A DNA stretch of 20,424 nt from a virus, in UHGV virus genome UHGV-0172319; one strand, given 5' to 3'. A model generated the notes under the pieces. The model ran no database searches and was not told where the DNA came from. It saw only the letters and a list, made by a program, of their open reading frames with translations. Below, piece after piece: positions 747 to 20,424 of the stretch (positions within the stretch are counted from its first letter, which is position 1; the number at the start of each line of letters is the position of its first letter). Made by a program: the position numbers and the translations under genes.

Positions 747-1799
747 TTATGTCTTATTCAGTTCGCGGATTTCTTCCACAGTCTGAATAAACCTTTCTGT
801 TTCCAGCTCAACACCGATTGCCCGTCGCCCCAGCGTCATAGCCGCTTTAATGGTTGAACCGGATCCCATGAAGAAATCAGCCACAACATCACCCGGCCTG
901 CTGCTGGCGTTGATGATCTGCTGCAACATGTCTGCTGGCTTTTCGCATGGGTGTTTGCCGGGATAGAACTGAACCGGCTTATGCGTCCAGACATCGGTGA
1001 AAGGAACAGAGACTGAAACAGAAAAGAATCGCCGGAGAGACTTATACTCTTCCAGCAATTCTGAATACTTTCGGTTCAACGAATGCCACGTGGCCACCAG
1101 CTGGTGGTGTGGTGTGTCGAGCTCATTGTTTCGATGCTTATCGAATGCAACCCTGGTGAACAATTCCTGCAGTTTCTGGTAATCCGCTTCGCCTGGCAGT
1201 TGCCATTGGGATGCACCGAACCAGTGGGACACCATGTTCTTTTTCCCGGTCGCATCGGCGATCTGCTTAGAGGAAACCCCCAGCGATTCACGCGCGTCAC
1301 GGAAGTATGAAATTAGAGGCGTCAGCACATGCTGTTTGAGCTCGTTACTTTTCTCCGCGTATCCATCACTCTTGGGCTTATATGGGCCCTGGTAATGTTC
1401 AGCGAAAAGAATGCGCTCAGTCGCAGGGAAATATGACCGCAGGCTTTCTTTGTTGCAGCCATTCCAGCGACCGGAAGGTTTTGCCCAGATGATGTGATTA
1501 AGGACACTGAACCGCTCCCGCATTATGATTTCAATATCAGACGCAAGGCGATGCCCGCAGAACAGGTAAAGGCTACCGGCGGGTTTCAGAACGCGCCAGA
1601 ACTCAGCCAGGTATCCATCAAGCCAGCGTAAAAAATCCTCGTCCCCTTTCCACTGGTTGTCCCATCCTTCAGGTTTCACCCTGAAGTAAGGTGGATCCGT
1701 AACGATAAGGTCAATGGAGTTATCAGGGAGAGAAGCGATGTAATGCAGGGAGTCAGCGTTGATTAACTCAACACTGTTTATTTTTACAGTATTTTCCAT
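747..1799 (-). CDS. Orphan DNA methyltransferase (beta-class amino-MTase, N6-adenine or N4-cytosine)
   Basis: 350 aa; motif IV DPPY near the N-terminus (LIVTDPPY) and AdoMet motif I near the C-terminus (FFMGSGST). No adjacent restriction endonuclease ORF. Confidence 0.85.
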   Translation of the reverse strand: MENTVKINSVELINADSLHYIASLPDNSIDLIVTDPPYFRVKPEGWDNQWKGDEDFLRWLDGYLAEFWRVLKPAGSLYLFCGHRLASDIEIIMRERFSVLNHIIWAKPSGRWNGCNKESLRSYFPATERILFAEHYQGPYKPKSDGYAEKSNELKQHVLTPLISYFRDARESLGVSSKQIADATGKKNMVSHWFGASQWQLPGEADYQKLQELFTRVAFDKHRNNELDTPHHQLVATWHSLNRKYSELLEEYKSLRRFFSVSVSVPFTDVWTHKPVQFYPGKHPCEKPADMLQQIINASSRPGDVVADFFMGSGSTIKAAMTLGRRAIGVELETERFIQTVEEIRELNKT

Positions 1800-5739: not shown

Positions 5740-6119
5740 GATGATATTTTTTCCTCAAATTTCTTGATCGAGATCTCTACTCTTCCCCCTTTCACTACTG
5801 GCCCCCACTCCACCAGCATTCTTTTCACCTGGCTGTCGTCCTCCCAGATCCCCGCGTGGGTAAGAGCGTCGAACAGCGCTTTGTTGTAGTTATCCAGATC
5901 CCGGATCCGGTTGTCCGGTGGGAACAGGATTATTTCAACAGCCGCCGGTGACGATGACGGCTTCGGGAGCATGCGCAGTTGTTCAATGATTGCCGCACAT
6001 GCTGACGACTGGAACTGGCGACCTTTGGCACTTATCAGGTGACGTCCCGCCAGCGGCCCCTTATTCGGGGCGCGCCAGTACGTGTTCACACTCGGAGGAA
6101 ACGGCAGCACCAGTTTCAT
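5733..6119 (-). CDS. rusA: Holliday-junction resolvase RusA
   Basis: 128 aa; start region and core (PPSVNTYWR...RDLDNYNKALFDALTHAGIWEDDSQV...KGGRVEISI) align with E. coli RusA, including the catalytic Asp-rich segment. Confidence 0.85.
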   Translation of the reverse strand: MKLVLPFPPSVNTYWRAPNKGPLAGRHLISAKGRQFQSSACAAIIEQLRMLPKPSSSPAAVEIILFPPDNRIRDLDNYNKALFDALTHAGIWEDDSQVKRMLVEWGPVVKGGRVEISIKKFEEKISSC

Positions 6120-6439
6120 ACCGTGATCCCCTTGTTTTTGAGATAGGCGATTGCGCGGTCCTTCGCACCATCCTCACCATTCACAAGCGCATGCAGCAGG
6201 GAATCTGCATCAGCAACGTTCTCCAGATCGTTGATGGCTATTCCCCGCGAAACGCCACGCGTCAGGGTGATAGCCCCTTTCCTCTCCAGCGCGCGCAGAT
6301 GATCCGCAGCAGCATTTGGGGAGCTGCATCCCAGCAGCCCCGAAAGTTCTGTATTGGTTGGAGGATAGCCATGCTCGCGTTGAAAGCTGATCAAGGTCTC
6401 CAGTACATGCTGCTGGCGAGCCGTGAGAATTTCTTTCAC
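6116..6439 (-). CDS. LexA N-terminal DNA-binding-domain-like protein (winged HTH, no S24 peptidase domain)
   Basis: 107 aa; LTARQQHVLETL...PPTNTELSGLLGCSSPNAAADHLRALERKGAITLTRGVSRGI parallels the LexA DNA-binding domain; no Ser/Lys peptidase region follows. Confidence 0.6.
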   Translation of the reverse strand: MKEILTARQQHVLETLISFQREHGYPPTNTELSGLLGCSSPNAAADHLRALERKGAITLTRGVSRGIAINDLENVADADSLLHALVNGEDGAKDRAIAYLKNKGITV

Positions 6440-9443: not shown

Positions 9444-9538
9444 GTTCCCTCCTAGTTAACCTACGCCCTAAAGGTAACAAAAGGTACATTAAATAGCAAA
9501 CAACAGTTACAGGAAAACAATGTAACATTCGTTACATG
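9444..9538. promoter_or_regulatory. OR-like immunity operator/promoter region between divergent cro and cI
   Basis: Contains operator copy GGTAACAAAAGGTACATT (9473-9490) and a related inverted element TGTAACATTCGTTACATG (9521-9538) overlapping the cI start; several GTAAC/GTTAC hexamers. Confidence 0.65.
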
Positions 9539-10198
9539 AAAACAGAGATGAAAGACCGAATCAGATCAAGGCGTGTACAGCTCGATATAACGCAGCAGAC
9601 CCTAGCTAAAAAGCTGGGGGTTAGCCGTGTATCTGTAACAAAATGGGAAAGCGGAACCACAAAACCAGATGGAGAGAACCTTCATCAGTTAGCGCTGGCT
9701 CTGCAAACCACCCCAGAATGGATTCTTTATGGTCAGGGCGATGATGAAAAAGTTGATGACACAAAATTAGTGCCATACTTAAAAACACCAACCGCCGTCC
9801 CAATTATTTCTGCTGTTCAGGCAGGCCTGTGGACTGATACCTATGCATGCTCAAGGCTGACTGATGTGATTTCCTGGACTCAAACAACTGCTAATGTTTC
9901 TGACGAAGTTTTTGGTCTTGTCGTTCGCGGCGAATCGATGACAAACCCACATGGACTCCCTTCAATACCTGAAGGCTCTATCGTAATCGTTGAACCACAC
10001 TATGGTCAGCTAGATGACCTTTATGGGAAGATCGTAGTTGCAGTTCTGGATGGCTCTGCTGAAGCTACGGTGAAAAAGTTAGTATGGGATAGCCCTTATG
10101 CCTATCTCATGCCACTAAATCCAGTGTTTAAACCCATTCAGATTGATGGAAATTGCAGAATCGTTGGAAAGGTTGTTCAGATTACGCAAAACCTATAG
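9536..10198 (+). CDS. cI: CI-type prophage repressor (N-terminal HTH plus C-terminal S24 LexA-like autopeptidase domain)
   Basis: 220 aa; HTH (LDITQQTLAKKLGVSRVSVTKWESG); C-terminal VVRGESM (Ser nucleophile) and TVKKL (Lys) as in lambda CI/LexA; divergent from cro. Confidence 0.9.
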   Translation: MKTEMKDRIRSRRVQLDITQQTLAKKLGVSRVSVTKWESGTTKPDGENLHQLALALQTTPEWILYGQGDDEKVDDTKLVPYLKTPTAVPIISAVQAGLWTDTYACSRLTDVISWTQTTANVSDEVFGLVVRGESMTNPHGLPSIPEGSIVIVEPHYGQLDDLYGKIVVAVLDGSAEATVKKLVWDSPYAYLMPLNPVFKPIQIDGNCRIVGKVVQITQNL

Positions 10199-11219: not shown

Positions 11220-12047
11220 ATGTCTCAGTTAGACAGCGGTGCATTTAAGCAGGTAAAAGACCTGGTCCTTTCTGGCTACCACCTGAATGATATTCAGGAT
11301 CTGGCATGCCCTACCGCTTTGTTGCCAGAAGGAACCAGCGTTGAAAGCCTCGAGCGTTTTTCTCTGGAGCGTTTCCGCTTTCGCGGCGCAATGACCACGA
11401 CCAGCATTGACGACTTCGCTCGTTACTCGAAGGGTTACGCCAGCGCCGACGAACCCGCCCGTTGCTTTATTGACGCTGACAACATGACCGCCCGCTCGGT
11501 ATTCAATATCGGTTCCCTGAAAAATCCTGGACATGCCGATAACGTTGCCGCTATCACCCTGAAGAAAACTGCCCCGTTCCGCGCTCTGCTGCAGATCGAT
11601 GGTCAACGCCTGAAGCAAAAGCAAATCGCTGAATGGCTGGAAGACTGGAGCGATTATCTGCTGGCGTTCGATGCTGATGGCAATACGATGCAAATTTCCC
11701 AGGCCGCCCAGGCTGTACGCCGTATCACTATCCAGCAGGCAACCCAGCAGGATCATGAAACGGGTGACTTCGCAGGTAAACGTTCACTCATGCAAAGCGT
11801 CGAAGCCAGCAGCAAAGATGTCATGCCGGTGGCGTTCGAGTTCAAGTGTGTGCCGTATGAAGGGCTTGGCGAGCGCCGCTTTAGTCTGCGTAACAGCCTG
11901 CTGACTGGTGATGAGCCAAGCTTTGTTCTGCGTATCGTCCAACTGGAAGCCCAGGAAGAAGCGATCGCCAACGAGTTTCGCGATCTGCTGATCAGTAAAT
12001 TCGACGGTGAATCAGTAGAAACTTTCATCGGTAACTTTAAAGCATAA
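11220..12047 (+). CDS. DUF2303-family protein (YfdQ-like)
   Basis: 275 aa; RBS AAGGAA; size and position match the CPS-53 yfdQ-yfdR arrangement; immediately precedes the HD-domain gene. Confidence 0.65.
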   Translation: MSQLDSGAFKQVKDLVLSGYHLNDIQDLACPTALLPEGTSVESLERFSLERFRFRGAMTTTSIDDFARYSKGYASADEPARCFIDADNMTARSVFNIGSLKNPGHADNVAAITLKKTAPFRALLQIDGQRLKQKQIAEWLEDWSDYLLAFDADGNTMQISQAAQAVRRITIQQATQQDHETGDFAGKRSLMQSVEASSKDVMPVAFEFKCVPYEGLGERRFSLRNSLLTGDEPSFVLRIVQLEAQEEAIANEFRDLLISKFDGESVETFIGNFKA

Positions 12048-12882: not shown

Positions 12883-13133
12883 CCGTATTCGAATACGTCC
12901 AGGCCTATCCCAATACCACCAGCAGCGATATTGCTAAAGCGCTGCACAGAAGGACACCTGTCGTGGCCGGCGCACTATCGCAACTCTACACCACTGGCCA
13001 CATCGTAAAAACTGGCGTTCGTGGTGGCGCACCAACTTACCGCGTTAACGATCTGCCATTCGGCTGCAGTAATCCTCTGACGCTAATGTTCAACCAGCTT
13101 TTACAGGCAGTTCGCCGGGAGGCAGCCCAATGA
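12879..13133 (+). CDS. Hypothetical small protein (84 aa, possible winged-helix)
   Basis: ORF with coupled start; overlaps the downstream PAPS-reductase-family gene by 4 nt. Confidence 0.5.
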   Translation: MTVFEYVQAYPNTTSSDIAKALHRRTPVVAGALSQLYTTGHIVKTGVRGGAPTYRVNDLPFGCSNPLTLMFNQLLQAVRREAAQ

Positions 13134-14155
13134 GCAACATTGACCAGCGCTGCCTTGCAAAAAACACCTTCAATTTAATTTCCATGTCCGGTGGGAAGGA
13201 CTCTCTCGCACAATGTCTGTACGCAGTAGAGAACGGCGTGCAGCACGAGCGGGTGTTTGCTGACACTGGTCACGAACACCCACAAACGATGGAGTACCTC
13301 GATTACCTGGAACAAAAGCTGGGTCCGATTCGCTGTGTAAAAGCCGACTTTACTCGTCAGATCGAGGGTAAGCGTAAATTCATTGCAGAAAAATGGCCGG
13401 TCTCCCTCGTTGAAGAATGTGGGATGTCTCAAGATGAAGCGGCGGAGCGCATTGCAAAAGCCTTAGAAATCCTCCACCCAACCGGTAATCCATTTCTTGA
13501 CCTGTGCATGTGGAAAGGCCGATTTCCGAGCACAAAGGCGCGGTTCTGCACGTTCGACCTTAAACATGAGCCTGTACGCACTCAGGTGGTGCTGCCGGCA
13601 CTTGATGAATATGACGAGGTTATCAGCTGGCAGGGTGTACGCGCCCAGGAATCGCCAGCGCGGGCCGGCCTGCCAATGTGGGAAGAAGATGCAGACAATA
13701 CGCCTGGCCTGCACGTCTATCGTCCGATCCTCAACTGGCTGCATGAGGATGTATTCGCCATTGCTAAACGCCACGGTATTAAACCTAACCCACTCTACCA
13801 GCAGGGATGCAGCCGGGTTGGGTGTATGCCGTGTATTCATGCTCGTAAATCTGAACTGGCAGAAATTTTCCAGCGCTGGCCGGAGGAAATCGCCAGGGTG
13901 GCGGAGTGGGAGCGATTCGTTGCGGCCTGCTCCCGCCGTGGAAATTCTACCTTCTTCCCGTCGACTCATGACCCACGAAGGGCGGAACGTCGCATAGACG
14001 TTATCACTGTTGACGGTTACGGGATTGAAACCTATCGAGACTGGGCAATGACCACTCGCGGGGGGCGCAATTTGATTTACTGGCCGCTGCGAACGATAAA
14101 TCCGTGTGCAGCAGTATTTATGCGGGGGTGTGCGAATGAACGAAAAACTACTTGA
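13130..14155 (+). CDS. PAPS-reductase-family PP-loop ATP pyrophosphatase-like protein
   Basis: 341 aa; PP-loop motif SMSGGKDS near the N-terminus; Cys-rich C-terminal region (GCSRVGCMPC); RBS GGAGG. Confidence 0.8.
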   Translation: MSNIDQRCLAKNTFNLISMSGGKDSLAQCLYAVENGVQHERVFADTGHEHPQTMEYLDYLEQKLGPIRCVKADFTRQIEGKRKFIAEKWPVSLVEECGMSQDEAAERIAKALEILHPTGNPFLDLCMWKGRFPSTKARFCTFDLKHEPVRTQVVLPALDEYDEVISWQGVRAQESPARAGLPMWEEDADNTPGLHVYRPILNWLHEDVFAIAKRHGIKPNPLYQQGCSRVGCMPCIHARKSELAEIFQRWPEEIARVAEWERFVAACSRRGNSTFFPSTHDPRRAERRIDVITVDGYGIETYRDWAMTTRGGRNLIYWPLRTINPCAAVFMRGCANERKTT

Positions 14156-14422: not shown

Positions 14423-14632
14423 ATGGCAAAGCTAATGAAGGCGAGTCAATGGGGACGCCGTGAATTTACCAATGACTCAGTTCCTGACAACCGAACTATT
14501 AGACGTTGGGTCGAGAATGGTTTACTCATGGGACGTATCGTGGACGGTTCTGTTTTTGTCTGCGAAACAGAAAAATGGGGTGTCGACTCAATGGTTAGTC
14601 AAGTAGTTCGCCAGTTAATTAATGAGGGCTGA
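14423..14632 (+). CDS. xis: Excisionase (Xis)
   Basis: 69 aa; TIRRWVENGLLMGRIVDGSVFV resembles the lambda Xis winged-helix core; immediately upstream of int with 1-codon spacing; RBS GGAG. Confidence 0.65.
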   Translation: MAKLMKASQWGRREFTNDSVPDNRTIRRWVENGLLMGRIVDGSVFVCETEKWGVDSMVSQVVRQLINEG

Positions 14633-14634
14633 CC

Positions 14635-15813
14635 ATGGCGGCAAGGCCAAGAAAAAAAGAATACCGACATCTGCCGGACTATCTGGTATTTGATAAAGAT
14701 CGAGGTGTTTATAAATTCACACTTATTACCGGGAAGAAGAAAAATATAGGTAAGGATCGGGCCATAGCAATAGCTATCGCTAGAGAGTACAACCTGAGAA
14801 TGAGACCTGAGCTTTCCCCGTCGGTTGATAATCTCATTAGAGAATCTGGTGGGGCTACTGGAGAAGCCAAACCATTTGCTGAACATGTGGATCACATAAT
14901 GGAACGTGCTATTGAGGACGAGCGCCCTTCTCAGAGCACCCTGGATGACTGGAATAATGACGCACTACGCGTAAAAGAGTTTTTCGTTAATGTTCCTGCC
15001 TGCGATATCGAGTTGGAGCATGTTAACGCATACATCAATCAATACCATGCCGGCGCGTCTGCGAACGTGCAAAACAGAAAAGTCAGCTTCCTTAAAAAGC
15101 TGTTTTCGTATGCGGTCGATGAATCCCTGATGCTCGATAATCCGGCAACCCGGAAGAAAATGCGCAGGACCGAAGAGAAGAAAAGACAACGCCTGTCTCT
15201 CGATCATTTCATGGCTATCCGGCGCGCTGCAGCACCATGGTTAAGAACGGCAATGGACCTGGCTCTACAGACGACACATGCGCGCCTCGAAGTATCGAGG
15301 ATCCGTTATTCAATTCGCGAACCCAAAAACGGTATATGTGGTTGTGTCTGGCTCGATCAGCCAGAGAACGGTATCTATGGAACACTATACATACACCGCC
15401 AAAAGGTACAGAAGAAGGAGGCGTCGCACGTTGCGATCCCCATAGGTGATGAGTTAAAACGCATCATTGATGATAGCCGGGATAATGTGGCCAGCCCGTA
15501 TGTTGTTCACCGGATCCCAGAACGGCAGGTAAAACGGAGTAAAGAGGTTTCGCATCCCACCCAGGTGGCCCCGGACTATTTAAGCCGCTCATTCTCTGCA
15601 GTACGCGACAAGCTCGGGTTATGCAATCACCTCGCTATGGATGAAAGACCTACCTTCCATGAAATACGCGCGTTGGCTGCTCACTTGTTTAATCAACAGG
15701 GTATCGATCCACAAGGACGAATGGCGCACAGTGATGCCAAGTCAACGAAGATTTATACCCAAAACCATATTGATTGGGTCGTTGTTCCTCATGGAGAAAT
15801 TTTAACGGCATAA
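14635..15813 (+). CDS. int: Tyrosine integrase (lambda Int family)
   Basis: 392 aa; C-terminal catalytic-region motifs (HEIRALAAHL; IYTQNH with putative Tyr nucleophile); N-terminal arm-binding-like domain; position after xis. Confidence 0.9.
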   Translation: MAARPRKKEYRHLPDYLVFDKDRGVYKFTLITGKKKNIGKDRAIAIAIAREYNLRMRPELSPSVDNLIRESGGATGEAKPFAEHVDHIMERAIEDERPSQSTLDDWNNDALRVKEFFVNVPACDIELEHVNAYINQYHAGASANVQNRKVSFLKKLFSYAVDESLMLDNPATRKKMRRTEEKKRQRLSLDHFMAIRRAAAPWLRTAMDLALQTTHARLEVSRIRYSIREPKNGICGCVWLDQPENGIYGTLYIHRQKVQKKEASHVAIPIGDELKRIIDDSRDNVASPYVVHRIPERQVKRSKEVSHPTQVAPDYLSRSFSAVRDKLGLCNHLAMDERPTFHEIRALAAHLFNQQGIDPQGRMAHSDAKSTKIYTQNHIDWVVVPHGEILTA

Positions 15814-16123
15814 GAAAAGGCACCAACAGGTGCCTTGAAATTGAGCTTTTTAACAACGAACTAAGAATGCCCATGCCTCATACCCATAATCATGAGCATC
15901 AAGGACTTTTGCGGATTTTCCACGTACCTTGCGGTAACGGCAGAAAACCCAGCGGAAACCTTTTGGTGCCGCTTTTGAAACGATTGATTTCAAACCCATT
16001 CATAAAACACCTCCTTACCAAGAGAGATTTTTCCCTTGAACATCTTCCCTGAAGGTGTTAGTTTCAGGCTGTCTATTGAAGCTGTTCACGGTGGTGATGC
16101 CTCTCGGATTCATCACCTAAATA

Positions 16124-16159
16124 CCCCTTGCATTGGTTGGCGCCAAGCAAGGGGTTTTT
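16124..16159. terminator. Bidirectional terminator between convergent int and ImmA-like gene
   Basis: CCCCTTGC..GCAAGGGG stem (16124-16154) followed by TTTTT; a second hairpin AAGGCACC..GGTGCCTT sits just after the int stop (15817-15837). Confidence 0.5.
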
Positions 16160-16679
16160 ACATTTTGTCTAACTGATAACGTGCGGCCACTAATGATACT
16201 CCGCATGCCTCAGCAACATTTTCAGCACCCATCCCTTTTAAAACATTGGCATGAATAGCTGGCACTAATAACTCACCACTAAAACATTTAGCTTGCCACT
16301 CACTACTCTCAAAAGGGCGGATTTTAACCCCTGGAGCAGAACGAGCAAAAGCTATGTTCCTGTGCATGAGAAGATGGCCCAACTCATGCGCGGCAGTCAT
16401 CCTGTCACGACCAACCCCATTCAAAGCACCTTCGTAGATGTCTTCGCGCAGAATTAATAAATGTTCCTGCGGGTACGTAAGTCCATGCGTCTCCCCCATT
16501 TCTTTCATCCCGCCGATGTGGAGTTCAAAATCAGGGATCAACTGAGGCAATGCGAACTCAATTACCTCCATAACAGGAAACTTCAGACCTGTAATACCGA
16601 AGGTGCTCCGCAGAGATCTGACGATCGAACGTATTGATTCACGATTCTGCGGGGGTACTCGATAATCTTGTCCGCTCAA
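16158..16679 (-). CDS. ImmA/IrrE-family zinc metallopeptidase (COG2856-like)
   Basis: 173 aa; HEXXH motif (AAHELGHLLMH); apparent TTG start preceded by a strong AGGAGG RBS; directly downstream of the XRE HTH gene. Confidence 0.8.
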   Translation of the reverse strand: MSGQDYRVPPQNRESIRSIVRSLRSTFGITGLKFPVMEVIEFALPQLIPDFELHIGGMKEMGETHGLTYPQEHLLILREDIYEGALNGVGRDRMTAAHELGHLLMHRNIAFARSAPGVKIRPFESSEWQAKCFSGELLVPAIHANVLKGMGAENVAEACGVSLVAARYQLDKM

Positions 16680-16687
16680 ACTGCCTC

Positions 16688-17047
16688 CTACTGCTGTTTT
16701 CGATTCAAAATCTGTCGTAAATTCCGGAAGTCTTCTTCGTTTAACTCATCAAAACTACGAGCGAACGCAATTGCGACTTCACGAGCGTGGTCGTTCTTAC
16801 CTGACAAGCTGATCTCTACTGATTGCTGAGAGTCACGAGCTGCACTGATAAGCTTTTCTTTTTGTTTTTCATCCGCATTAAGATAGCCAATGATGCTATC
16901 AAGCACGGGTTTAGTGACCGCCCTTTTACCAGTTTCGATTGCTGAAAGATAAGACGAGGTCATACCCATAGCCTCAGCCATGCTTTTAAGCGTAAGCCCC
17001 AGGTCTATGCGCATTTTTCTTACTGTCTTACCAAACGGCGTTAACAT
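16688..17047 (-). CDS. XRE-family helix-turn-helix transcriptional regulator
   Basis: HTH segment (LGLTLKSMAEAMGMTSSYLSAIETGKR); ATG at 17047 with GGAG RBS (the track ORF's TTG at 17080 is less likely); forms an operon with the ImmA-like gene. Confidence 0.8.
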   Translation of the reverse strand: MLTPFGKTVRKMRIDLGLTLKSMAEAMGMTSSYLSAIETGKRAVTKPVLDSIIGYLNADEKQKEKLISAARDSQQSVEISLSGKNDHAREVAIAFARSFDELNEEDFRNLRQILNRKQQ

Positions 17048-17121
17048 ATGTTGTATCTCCAGTGTGTCAAAGACCCCCAATACTCTCGGGTCTCATTTTA
17101 AGTTAACACGCTCCAGACATG

Positions 17122-17145
17122 AAATCAACTAAATTTTGTTGATTT
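17122..17145. promoter_or_regulatory. Perfect palindrome AAATCAAC-N8-GTTGATTT upstream of the XRE/ImmA operon; candidate operator
   Basis: 8-bp perfect inverted arms read in sequence, about 75-100 bp upstream of the XRE start in an AT-rich promoter region. Confidence 0.45.
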
Positions 17146-17343
17146 GTTTTATCTGACTTAGTTAATGAGTTTTTCATGTTCTGTTGATAGAACCTTTAGC
17201 TGAGTGAAGATATATGGGGAAATATGGGATATAAGTCTTTGATGTACAACACACACATTTTGCGAAAAATGCACTGTTTGTTTATACATACGAATGGTTA
17301 GCAACAGCAGACATGGAGCGACTTGCAGAGCTTTCGAAGCGGT

Positions 17344-17391
17344 GTCATGGGGTGTCGGGGGTCGGAGGTTCAAATCCTCTCGTGCCGACCA
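17344..17391 (+). other. 3' fragment (about 48 nt: anticodon-loop region, T-arm, acceptor 3' strand, CCA) of a tRNA-Pro(GGG)-like gene, with no matching 5' half; candidate att core
   Basis: GTCATGGGGTGTCGGGGGTCGGAGGTTCAAATCCTCTCGTGCCGACCA has the T-loop GGTTCAAATCC and acceptor CGTGCCGACCA; matches enterobacterial proL as recalled from memory; no complementary CGGCACG acceptor 5' strand upstream. Confidence 0.6.
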
Positions 17392-17401
17392 AAATTCCCC
17401 A

Positions 17402-17433
17402 GAAAAACCAGCCTTTTACGGCTGGTTTTTTTA
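17402..17433 (+). terminator. Rho-independent terminator directly after the tRNA fragment
   Basis: CCAGCC..GGCTGG stem followed by TTTTTTT. Confidence 0.6.
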
Positions 17434-17523
17434 TTATTGCCGTCCACCGAAATGGAATTCGATTCGAGTTATGGACGGAAATAATGTTACACTTCCGGTT
17501 TTGCACAGCCGATCTTATTGCTT

Positions 17524-17886
17524 ATGTGGCATCACTTCATCAAGTACACCTCCGTAGGCGTGATCAACACATTGATTCACTGGATAGTTTTTGCTATCTG
17601 CATCTACGCCTTTCATACCCATCAGGCGCTGGCGAATTTCCTGGGCTTCAGTGTGGCGGTCAGTTTTTCTTTTTACGCCAACGCCCGGTTTACCTTTAAG
17701 CAATCGACCACAACGCGTCGCTATCTGCTGTATGTCGGCTTTATGGGCCTGCTCAGTATCCTGACGGGTTGGGGGGCCGAACAGTGCGGTTTCCCACCGC
17801 TGGTGACGCTGGTCGCGTTCTCCGCCATTAGTCTCATTTGTGGCTTTATTTATTCCAGATTCATTGTATTCAAGGACGCACGATGA
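17524..17886 (+). CDS. gtrA: GtrA, bactoprenol-linked glucose flippase (O-antigen glucosylation)
   Basis: 120 aa from ATG 17524; small polytopic membrane protein ([14 protein letters not shown]..., ...[18 protein letters not shown]) closely resembling P22/SfV GtrA as recalled. Confidence 0.85.
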
Positions 17887-18830
17887 AAATTTCACTGGTC
17901 GTTCCTGTCTTCAACGAAGAAGAAACCATTGGCCTCTTTTACAAGACGGTGCGTGAATACGACGCACTGAAAGAACATGATGTCGAAATTGTGTTCATCA
18001 ACGATGGTAGCACCGACGCAACGGAATCCATCATCAACGCCCTCGCCGTCGCCGACCCACTCGTTGTTCCGCTCTCGTTTACGCGAAATTTTGGTAAAGA
18101 ACCGGCGCTGCTCGCCGGGCTCGACAATGCCAGTGGCGATGCCGTCATTCCGATGGATGTCGATCTCCAGGATCCTGTCGAAGTCCTGCCGCACTTGATT
18201 CAAAAATGGCAGGATGGGGCGGACATCGTGCTGGCTAAGCGTTCCGATCGCTCCGTCGATAGCCGCCTGAAGCGAAAATCCGCCGAGTGGTTTTATAAGC
18301 TACACAATAAAATCAGCACGCCGCATATCGAAGAAAACGTCGGCGATTTTCGGCTGATGAGTCGTGAAGTGGTGGACAACATTAAACAAATGCCAGAACG
18401 AAATCTGTTCATGAAAGGGATTTTATCCTGGGTTGGCGGCAAAACTGACATCGTCCTCTACGCGCGCGCCACTCGCTGTGCCGGGAAAAGTAAATTCAAC
18501 GGCTGGAAACTGTGGAACCTTGCACTGGAAGGGATCACCTCTTTTTCTACCTTCCCTCTGCGTATCTGGACCTACATTGGTCTGGCGGTTGCCCTGCTTT
18601 CTTTCACCTACGGTGCAGGAATGGTGATAGATACGCTTCTGTGGGGAAATCCCGTGCGTGGCTATTCTTCCTTGATTGTGTCAATCCTGTTTCTGGGAGG
18701 CGTACAGCTTATTGGCATTGGCGTGCTGGGTGAGTATATCGGACGAATCTATGTCGAGACCAAGCAGCGGCCTCGATACATTCTGAAAAAACGTAAAACT
18801 GTGGACCACGATTCAGACAAGGATAACTGA
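17883..18830 (+). CDS. gtrB: GtrB, bactoprenol glucosyltransferase (GT2 family)
   Basis: 315 aa; [13 protein letters not shown]... with DxD-type region (PMDVDLQD); C-terminal TM helices; start overlaps gtrA stop (ATGA). Confidence 0.9.
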
Positions 18831-20374
18831 TGTTAAAGCATGTTAATAAAAGCATTCTTTTAATTGCCTTTTTTGCAGTATTTATCCTGGAGTGGTTCAC
18901 CCCTATTCACTCCGATGATTACCGTTATGCCCTGCTTGGCATCTCATTTGATGCGCACCTGCATCACTACCTGACCTGGAGCGGGCGCATAGTGGCTGAT
19001 TTTGTCAGCTCGCTTTTACTCGCCACCGGATCTCGTGGATTTATCTCAACCATGACCGGCCTTGTCGTCGTCGCGTTCTGCTATTTCATTGTGAAAACGC
19101 CGACGGGCACGCTGAAATGGAAAAAACATGACGCGCTGATCTTTACCCTTATTTTTCTGACCTTTTGGGTCGCTAACCCGAATATCGGACAAACGGTTTT
19201 CTGGATAGTCGGCAGCGCGAACTACCTGTGGACGAATCTGTTCGTCGCCGCATGGCTCTGGAACCTGTACCGCATACAGCTTCAGCGTGAAGAGCGTACA
19301 CACATGGGTATGCTGTTGCTCGGGCTGTTGGCGGGCTGTTCCAATGAAAGCGTCGCGCCATTTGTCGTGGGTTTTGCCCTTCTGGCTATCGTGTACGATT
19401 ACTGGCAAGCGAAACGCGTCTTTGCGAATAAGGTCGCGTATTTTTTGTCCGCACTGGTGGGCGCCAGTATTTTGATTTTCTCACCAGGCAATTTTATTCG
19501 CGCTCAGGGCGCTCATACCGTCTGGTATGATAAATCGATCGTTGAAAGAATCACAATTCATCTGAGCGAGCGCTTCTTTAACCACCTGGCGCTGGTCTGG
19601 ATTTCTTATGTCGTACTGGTCTTACTGGCAATGCTTCTGATCGTGGCCAAACGACAAGGCCATCGCATTAAAAGTGCGAATCTCAACATGGTCGGCTTAA
19701 TGCTGTTGGTGGGGCTGGGAACCTCTTTAATTATGGTGGCCTCCCCGTCGTATCCTGACCGCGTCATGCTGTCGACATTTTTATTTTTCCTGCTTGCCCT
19801 CTCGTTCCTTGCGCGGGAAGTCGTCACGGTAGCCGGACCATGTGTCATGAAAGGAGTCTATGTCGTTACGGGCCTGATGGCTGCGGTATTCATCTGGTCA
19901 TACGCGTTAATGTATGCCGCTTATACGCGCGTTTATGAGCAGGATGTTGTTCGTGTGAATATCGTTAAGCGCCAACTCAGCCAGGGTCACAAGGACTTTA
20001 CGGTGCCTGACTTCCACTTCCTGAAAATGCAAAACAGCGGAGGGCATTTCGGTTTCTTTCACGATCCGCAGGTCTATGGCCGTTATTTTGCCGCAGGGAA
20101 TGTGGCGAAGAAAAAAGTTAACTTCGACTACTCCGTACTCGTCAACGGTAAGCAGCAAACCATCGATGACAATACCGTGGCCTGGTTCAATCACCGCGGT
20201 GATTTAATGCTGGTGAGCAAGCATCCATTAACCGGTACCGTGCAGGTGAAGACCGAATCGTCCGATACGTCGCGCTCGCTTACGCGCTTTACCGCCGCGA
20301 AAATTAACGATGAATACTGGTATTTCAGCGCCATACCTAAAGCAGAAGTGACTCACGTCGCGCTGCTGCCCTGA
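18830..20374 (+). CDS. gtrC: GtrC-type serotype-specific O-antigen glucosyltransferase (polytopic membrane protein)
   Basis: 514 aa; many hydrophobic segments over the first 380 aa then a soluble C-terminal domain; third gene of the gtr operon, start overlapping the gtrB stop. Confidence 0.7.
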   Translation: MLKHVNKSILLIAFFAVFILEWFTPIHSDDYRYALLGISFDAHLHHYLTWSGRIVADFVSSLLLATGSRGFISTMTGLVVVAFCYFIVKTPTGTLKWKKHDALIFTLIFLTFWVANPNIGQTVFWIVGSANYLWTNLFVAAWLWNLYRIQLQREERTHMGMLLLGLLAGCSNESVAPFVVGFALLAIVYDYWQAKRVFANKVAYFLSALVGASILIFSPGNFIRAQGAHTVWYDKSIVERITIHLSERFFNHLALVWISYVVLVLLAMLLIVAKRQGHRIKSANLNMVGLMLLVGLGTSLIMVASPSYPDRVMLSTFLFFLLALSFLAREVVTVAGPCVMKGVYVVTGLMAAVFIWSYALMYAAYTRVYEQDVVRVNIVKRQLSQGHKDFTVPDFHFLKMQNSGGHFGFFHDPQVYGRYFAAGNVAKKKVNFDYSVLVNGKQQTIDDNTVAWFNHRGDLMLVSKHPLTGTVQVKTESSDTSRSLTRFTAAKINDEYWYFSAIPKAEVTHVALLP

Positions 20375-20381
20375 ATAAAAA

Positions 20382-20417
20382 AGCCTCTCATCACGATGAG
20401 AGGCTCTCCCCCTTTTC
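20382..20417 (+). terminator. Rho-independent terminator after gtrC
   Basis: AGCCTCTCATC..GATGAGAGGCT stem followed by a C/T-rich run (CTCCCCCTTTTCC). Confidence 0.6.
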
Positions 20418-20424
20418 CCGACAG

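Follow-up and report, generated by a model that had tools for sequence, protein, structure and literature searches.

The LexA-box-like 20-mer CACTGTTTGTTTATACATAC, located at positions 17272-17291 of the window (the whole stretch of viral DNA analysed here, 20,424 nucleotides long), lies in a conserved block just upstream of a tRNA fragment. On balance, our sequence comparisons favour the view that this 20-mer is part of the int-proximal attachment arm, here attR, of a prophage with lambda-type Int and Xis inserted in proL, and that it represents a dual site, for an accessory recombination protein and for LexA, which is in a LexA-off state in this phage. In the window the site is probably a LexA-off allele rather than a working LexA operator.

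On the plus strand the site consists of CTGT (17274-17277), TTGTTTAT (17278-17285) and ACAT (17286-17289), exactly the CTGT-N8-ACAT motif at 17274-17289 pointed out in an earlier note on this DNA, and the single mismatch from the LexA box core claimed there was also confirmed, with CAT in place of CAG. The 20-mer was recorded without assignment to a strand. Its left half, CACTGT, is canonical and its right half reads ACATAC instead of ACAGT(N), so that T17289 occupies the position that LexA needs as G and A17290 stands for the usual T or C. When submitted to a CTG-N10-CAG test, the site showed the left CTG (17274-17276) and failed on the right, where CAT (17287-17289) replaces the CAG present in 18/18 of the verified boxes used.

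The site was then scored with a symmetrised heterology-index (HI) matrix trained on 18 E. coli LexA boxes, the source list of which was PMC3009722. The matrix scoring that the earlier note had suggested gave a divided answer: the site ranked third among the 20,405 window positions, but its HI of 14.0 lay above the range of the training sites (1.8-12.2), whose scores reached up to 17 when each was left out in turn. No numerical HI cut-offs are given in the main text of the PSOSP paper. Sites with HI 14.0 or better are expected 0.34 times per 20.4 kb, and the chance of a site of this grade in a 250-bp stretch of the same composition is 0.02. The CTGT-N8-ACAK pattern occurred four times in the window against 1.06 expected, a number reached in 8 of 100 shuffles. 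Judged on the window alone, the LexA match is marginal.

A much better, near-consensus LexA box, CACTGTTTATTTTTACAGTA, was detected at 1772-1791, with the best HI of the window (5.4), a value never reached in 500 simulations. It falls within codons 4-10 of an N6/N4 DNA methyltransferase gene (747-1799, minus strand, ATG at 1799), and its 18-nt core is exact in 7 related viral contigs that also carry a gene for a protein made of a LexA DNA-binding domain only. The 1772-1791 box is a far better candidate for LexA, or for the phage LexA-like protein, than 17272-17291.

The window corresponds to the early and integration region of a lambdoid prophage. It encodes P22-type Cro, CII and a CI repressor with an S24 peptidase domain (9536-10198), and also contains replication and nin-region genes. 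A YfdQ-like DUF2303 protein (11220-12047) and a PAPS-reductase-domain protein (13130-14155) are encoded between CI and xis, in a region with relatives in E. coli CPS-53-like and proL prophages. The recombination module (14423-15813, plus strand) encodes a Xis-like protein and a lambda-type integrase. The integrase (14635-15813, plus strand) has an arm-binding N-terminal domain (PF09003 Arm-DNA-bind_1, with PF00589) and matches lambda Int with an E value of 2e-16. The Xis-like protein (14423-14632, plus strand) is 69 aa long and returned no PHROG hit; that it might be the Xis of this phage is suggested by the location of its gene, upstream of int, and by a weak similarity to Xis of lambda (31% identity over 32 aa, E 0.005).

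The arm is composed, from left to right, of Int arm-type site(s), an IHF site, a 37-bp block containing the 20-mer, a spacer of ~50 nt and a core beginning at the tRNA anticodon loop. The Int arm-type feature (17214-17232, plus strand) comprises ATGGGGAAA (17214-17222) and, at 17224-17232, a second copy that is degenerate, ATGGGATAT. The IHF consensus site (17232-17244) is on the minus strand, where cATCAAagacTTA matches WATCAANNNNTTR. The conserved block (17259-17295, plus strand) has the consensus TTTTGCAAAAAATGCACTGTTTGyWTAtACAKnnnAAT, and is separated from the core by a spacer (17296-17345, plus strand) of poorly conserved sequence and near-constant length. The core (17346-17394, plus strand) was identified by alignment with E. 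coli K-12 proL and equals the host tRNA-Pro(GGG) gene between the anticodon loop (CATGGGG) and the CCA end (17391), both included, with the AAA that comes next; the full homologous tRNA gene in the related locus L017 was called as tRNA-Pro with anticodon GGG. The tRNA terminator hairpin (17404-17432, plus strand) is formed by CCAGCC, a 6-nt loop and GGCTGG, with a run of seven T. Since ARAGORN called no complete tRNA in the window and Rfam returned nothing at gathering score, the element after the site is a tRNA fragment, as the earlier note had it, and consists of the 3' part of tRNA-Pro only (17346-17391).

A conservation profile was built from 76 unique arms anchored on the box. In the IHF site, TAA and TTGAT each gave ~2.0 bits, with four variable bases between them. 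Most positions of the block carried 1.0-2.0 bits, a few less, and the flanking columns little; those of the spacer were mostly below 0.7 bit. Several arm positions were invariant at 2.0 bits. The IHF and arm-type sites are in fixed register with the box, and 67 or 68 nt separated the last base of CACTGT from the core in 95/96 arm occurrences. The block lies between the arm-type site and the core, within ~150 bp of the crossover, is held in phase and is linked to the recombination module, as an accessory site of an attachment arm would be.

Where attP is intact, as in the cultured E. coli phages Eeyore and Flotzy among others, the far arm contains 2-3 tandem copies of ATGG(G/T)(G/A)AAA at ~11 bp spacing, just past the tRNA terminator, and within a phage the two arms co-vary in the variant of the repeat that they carry (ATGGTAAAA, ATGGGGAAA or ATGGTGAAA). 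The presence of this repeat on both arms and its co-variation identify it, and not the box, as the Int arm-type site; the box was rejected in that role, which the ATGG(G/T)(G/A)AAA repeat fills. One exact copy of CACTGTTTG was present in the window, and near matches with one mismatch did not exceed chance (6 found, 5.5 expected). Past the far arm of attP, a UmuD-like gene and a DinI gene were found in Eeyore (L097, 3741-4663) and in Flotzy (L098, 3241-4167), and in Flotzy a canonical LexA box, gACTGTATGCATATACAGTAg, lies between the two genes (L098, 3824-3843). SOS-related accessory genes thus adjoin an attP that itself bears a LexA box.

In the window, no Int arm-type repeat was found to the right of the terminator, and the gtr flank found there had no match in 5,426 complete E. 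coli genomes. These two results indicate that the junction is attR, with the prophage residing in another enterobacterial host beside a gtr island. The E. coli relatives of the prophage are located at proL, adjoining yejO. The flank (17433-20424) is an O-antigen glucosylation cluster with gtrA, gtrB and a gtrC-like gene (DUF6056), which starts ~85 nt past the tRNA terminator, outside the prophage, and is not preceded by the arm-type repeats of this phage. It appears to be what is left of an earlier element that used this tRNA in a non-E. coli host. The spacer (17296-17345) is weakly similar to the 5' half of proL and its upstream sequence, e.g., GGTTAGCAACAGCAGACATGGAGCGACTTGCAGAGC compared with TATTAGCAGCCACGAGTCGGCACGTAGCGCAGC of K-12, and one possible origin of the phage arm is a complete tRNA gene that was captured and then decayed.

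The distribution of the element was evaluated on a collection of 82 unique arms, assembled without bias towards the box by anchoring on the IHF site and the core only; the arms are phylogenetically non-independent, and all family counts given below are to be read with this dependence. The orthologous element was found in 82/82 of these arms, with CTG (positions 3-5 of the 20-mer) in 81/82, TTG (7-9) in 80-81/82 and CA (16-17) in 81/82. An earlier collection of 78 viral contigs, gathered by a pattern fixing only CACTGT and the core, showed the same motif in the same register. Among integrase relatives from species-representative genomes, 13/14 carried it, again in register with the tRNA core downstream, in the genera Enterobacter, Pseudocitrobacter, Citrobacter, Serratia, Symbiopectobacterium and Entomohabitans; host names come from 13 species-labelled loci and from Escherichia (E. 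coli) records, IMG/VR contigs carrying no host label. Two loci with more distant Int relatives (L015 and L017, from Parashewanella and Psychromonadaceae) were set aside as comparators, being devoid of arm and box and hence uninformative.

These comparisons bear directly on the possibility that the site is nothing but an accidental, functionless match in A+T-rich intergenic DNA. The fact that at least one site of HI 14.0 or better occurred in 29% of simulated (shuffled) windows would agree with such an explanation, but in-register conservation in 82 unique arms across several host genera excludes pure chance and refutes this reading, which we consider extremely improbable.

The earlier note had placed the motif in an intergenic region upstream of an XRE/ImmA promoter. 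The site is indeed intergenic, between XRE (ATG at 17050, minus strand) and the tRNA 3' fragment (17346-17391), but it is not part of the XRE/ImmA promoter region. Pfam searches and alignment with the cargo-free locus L033 defined a cargo insertion of ~1.4 kb (15814-17205, minus strand) between the int stop codon and the att arm, containing ImmA/IrrE (16158-16679, minus strand) and XRE (16688-17050, minus strand). In L033 the arm-type site comes immediately after the stop codon of int, and the ~1.4 kb with XRE/ImmA is inserted at that point in the window. The block is kept with XRE/ImmA cargo, with AAA-ATPase cargo, with hypothetical-protein cargo or with none; it travels with int/xis and the tRNA core, whatever the cargo. 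Relatives without cargo have the int stop only 131-167 nt from the core, and retain the box. E. coli loci with other int-att genes, one with an AAA ATPase and a hypothetical protein, another with a single hypothetical protein, share only ~17213-17440 with the window. The box is 222 nt from the XRE ATG, past the cassette boundary and past the palindromes at 17124-17143 and 17183-17188. Because the box persists with other or no cargo, and because the XRE ATG lies at this distance across the cargo boundary, the assignment to the XRE/ImmA promoter was abandoned: XRE/ImmA is cargo to the left of the arm. Upstream of the XRE/ImmA operon, ATCAACTAAATTTTGTTGAT at 17124-17143 is a perfect ATCAAC-N8-GTTGAT palindrome, with an extra GTTGAT half-site at 17183-17188; both are inside the cargo cassette and are probably the operators of XRE itself.

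The 82 arms revealed a dimorphism at position 18 of the 20-mer, where LexA requires a G, with G in 57 arms, T in 24 (including the window), C in 1 and A in none. The following base, position 19, was T or C in 56/57 G-class arms and in 4/24 T-class arms (Fisher p=4.5e-14), and when only distinct 20-mers were considered the proportions were 29/30 and 4/17 (p=2e-7); in the verified boxes, the base after CAG is T or C in 18/18 cases. The HI values separated the two classes. The G class had a median of 8.2, with 49/57 arms at 10 or better, i.e., within the range of verified boxes, and a range of 3.9-12.7 save for one arm at 36.8 that is probably out of register. Near-consensus sites were found in L142 (TACTGTATGCATATACAGTT) and L006 (CACTGTATGTATATACAGTT), and the variants at positions 1-2 (CA, TA, AA, TG, CG) are of the kind tolerated by real boxes. 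The T class had a median HI of 14.0, with 0/24 arms at 10 or better.

The two alleles have switched repeatedly. Four identical 17-nt prefixes were found with either G or T, and a neighbour-joining tree of 66 integrases required at least 9 changes of the G/T state, as compared with 20.7 when the states were shuffled. A Xis 96-97% identical to that of the window occurs with either allele, with CAG in L019 and with CAT in L092. As read from these alignments, the LexA-like constraint (CAG followed by T or C) is one that acts in the G class only, and one and the same transversion has repeatedly created or removed it. The exclusive use of G and T, with A never seen, can be explained only by assuming a second protein that reads the keto group at position 18.

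The LexA resemblance reported in the earlier note has therefore a real evolutionary basis, since the orthologous site has the canonical form CTGT-N8-(A/C)CAG in 57/82 relatives (~70%), but in the window itself the allele is CAT, the HI is 14.0 and the following T is lost. With the invariant G replaced, the next T lost and no T-class arm at HI 10 or better, strong LexA binding in the window is unlikely; the T allele together with the loss of T at position 19 (A17290) led us to read the window as the LexA-off version of a dual site.

One might still regard 17272-17291 as a weak but working LexA operator, repressing a nearby promoter (that of XRE/ImmA, or an outward or antisense one) until SOS induction. 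As true sites reach HI 17 when left out of the matrix, a value of 14.0 is borderline and weak LexA binding in the window is possible; the rank of the site in the window, its perfect CACTGT left half and the canonical orthologues point in the same direction. The replacement of the invariant G of CAG, the scores of the T class, none of which reaches 10 or better, and the lapse of the position-19 constraint in that class argue against it, as do the promoter scan, which called no promoter, the location of the XRE ATG across the cargo boundary in a cassette with operator-like palindromes of its own, and the retention of the site where no gene lies between int and core. We consider this reading unlikely, and retain that of a LexA-off allele within an attachment arm.

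The target might alternatively be recognised by a protein of the phage itself. The LexA-DNA-binding-domain-only protein which the earlier note had reported in the same phage was confirmed: it is encoded at 6116-6439 (minus strand), is 107 aa long, matches PF01726 with E=1.8e-18 and is a full-length member of PHROG 362, annotated as 'transcriptional repressor'. It aligns to LexA residues 3-70, without the cleavage or dimerisation domain, and its gene is in the nin region between Dam methylase and RusA. The protein could be an uncleavable LexA mimic made in lytic growth. Its recognition helix reads SPNAAADHL, compared with SPNAAEEHL in LexA, the SPNAA start being kept, and from this difference its binding specificity could be shifted.

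In this case, 17272-17291 would be bound by the 107-aa protein through an altered helix accepting CAT besides CAG. The kept SPNAA with the differing remainder of the helix and the repressor annotation of PHROG 362 are compatible with such a role, and the T allele occurs in 5/7 att-arm loci where the gene was seen. A first count of 5 T against 1 CAG had suggested an association between allele and gene, which was undone by L075 and L101 (one contig), where a 97%-identical gene accompanies a CAG box of HI 6.9, and by the finding that the att arm is within reach in only 1/40 contigs carrying the gene. The latter value indicates independent assortment of the LexA-like gene and the att module. In L078, too, the gene is accompanied by CAG, and the T-class loci L004, L005, L074 and L077 show no such gene in at least 12 kb. 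No link emerged between the allele of the box and the presence of the gene, or otherwise between the protein and the candidate binding site of the earlier note, and a role of this protein at 17272-17291 appears improbable.

A further possibility is that the conserved positions belong to a promoter, with TTGCGA (17260-17265), a 17-nt spacer and TATACA (17283-17288), that would give a short RNA crossing the tRNA fragment and ending at the terminator, and for which the box would be the operator. Hexamers and spacing are conserved (TTGC at 1.2-1.8 bits, TATACA 17 nt downstream), and E. coli K-12 proL has a TTGCAA -35 hexamer. In classical SOS promoters the box overlaps the spacer and the -10 hexamer, and the box in the window would do the same. 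On the other hand, the last base of TATACA is A, and not the near-essential T, in 81/82 arms, and its second base is G in 13/82. The promoter scan called no sigma-70 promoter at the box on either strand, and a sigma-70 promoter was discarded on this ground and because the candidate -10 hexamers are without the conserved last T. The would-be transcript is fixed in length and unconserved in sequence, which fits phasing of DNA better than an RNA, and it corresponds to no Rfam family and to no complete tRNA. An RNA element was likewise rejected, as the Rfam matches were all sub-threshold and driven by the tRNA and the terminator, and ARAGORN found no tRNA. This explanation was considered very unlikely.

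The architecture of the arm was then compared with the P arm of lambda attP, in which the Xis sites X1, X1.5 and X2 and the Fis site F are located between the arm-type/IHF sites and the core. The two modules are of the same type, with an Int carrying the lambda arm-binding domain and a small Xis-like protein, and follow the same order of arm-type site, IHF site, accessory block, spacer and core. The block is ~37 bp long and starts ~76 bp from the presumed crossover centre, and in lambda CTGTTTTTTATGCA lies at ~72 bp. The systems differ in that int adjoins this arm in the window, whereas it adjoins P' in lambda, and in that no arm-type site is directly beside the block in the window family. By eye, CTGTTT(G)TTTAT(A/G)CA resembles CTGTTTTTTATGCA, but homology to the lambda P arm was rejected because global alignment of four arms gave z values of -0.15 to 0.39 against shuffles. 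A Fis site or a second IHF site in the block was also excluded, as inspection by eye showed neither a Fis-type G-N13-C core nor a second match to WATCAANNNNTTR inside it. The parallel with lambda X2/Fis would thus be one of position only.

From this arrangement we infer which proteins may bind the block and what LexA occupancy might do. The invariant part of the block (TTTTGC...TGCACTGTTTG..T...CA...AAT) would be the docking place of an architectural protein that is accessory to the recombination complex, with the Xis-like directionality factor as the most plausible candidate, the block being placed where lambda has its X1-X2/Fis sites. A first constraint, common to all arms, would hold CTGTTTG, T and CA with the flanking TTTTGC and AAT, and would keep block, IHF site and core at a constant phasing, as expected of an architectural docking site of a recombination complex. 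In ~70% of the family the same DNA would also be a good LexA operator, CTGT-N8-(A/C)CAG(T/C), and in these G-class phages host LexA would occupy the arm, thus tying assembly of the excision/integration complex to the SOS state. LexA on a G-class arm might block access of Xis until SOS induction, or might license integration in undamaged cells. The changes of the window at 17289 (G->T) and 17290 (T->A) would remove the LexA-specific contacts with all else kept. SOS coupling can also go through autocleavage of S24-peptidase CI repressors, and since the CI repressor of the window has an S24 peptidase domain, the coupling of this phage can run by that route; it presumably depends on CI (9536-10198) for SOS induction.

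A bolder formulation would make host LexA a direct component, or gatekeeper, of the recombination complex, bound to a phased operator in the arm at the dock of the directionality factor, so that LexA cleavage licenses excision or integration at the DNA substrate with no promoter involved, and the G/T toggle, set to T here, switches the gate and has been flipped many times. We advance this idea tentatively, as possible but not probable.

Such an arrangement can be set against known uses of LexA. The site of the window shares with the E. coli LexA operator (TACTGTATATATATACAGTA; recA, sulA, umuDC) the dyad, the spacing CTGT-N8-ACA-, a perfect left half and an A/T-rich centre, and differs from it in the T that replaces the invariant G, in the HI (14.0 versus 1.8-12.2) and in having no recognisable promoter overlap. 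The central TTG is invariant in the arm family although LexA does not require it, and the site is inside a recombination arm. LexA control of mobile elements operates at integron intI promoters, at CTXphi PrstA, at coliphage 186 tum and at the Gifsy antirepressors, where LexA represses the promoter of a gene. In these systems, too, recombination or induction is coupled to SOS through host LexA; by contrast, the box described here is in the recombination substrate, with no gene or promoter attached. Neither a LexA box inside an attP arm nor LexA control acting directly on the recombination substrate was found described in the full text of the limited literature searched.

As for the annotation of the window, the motif should not be labelled as an SOS operator of XRE/ImmA; it marks the attR arm of the prophage. 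Across the family, the pattern is that of a canonical LexA operator at fixed phase in an attachment arm, with no gene to regulate and with a recurrent one-base switch. The G allele is present in the intact attP of Eeyore and Flotzy, which makes experiments practical in these cultured E. coli phages. Should LexA indeed be present on these arms, excision or integration of the prophage would come under SOS control directly at the recombination substrate.
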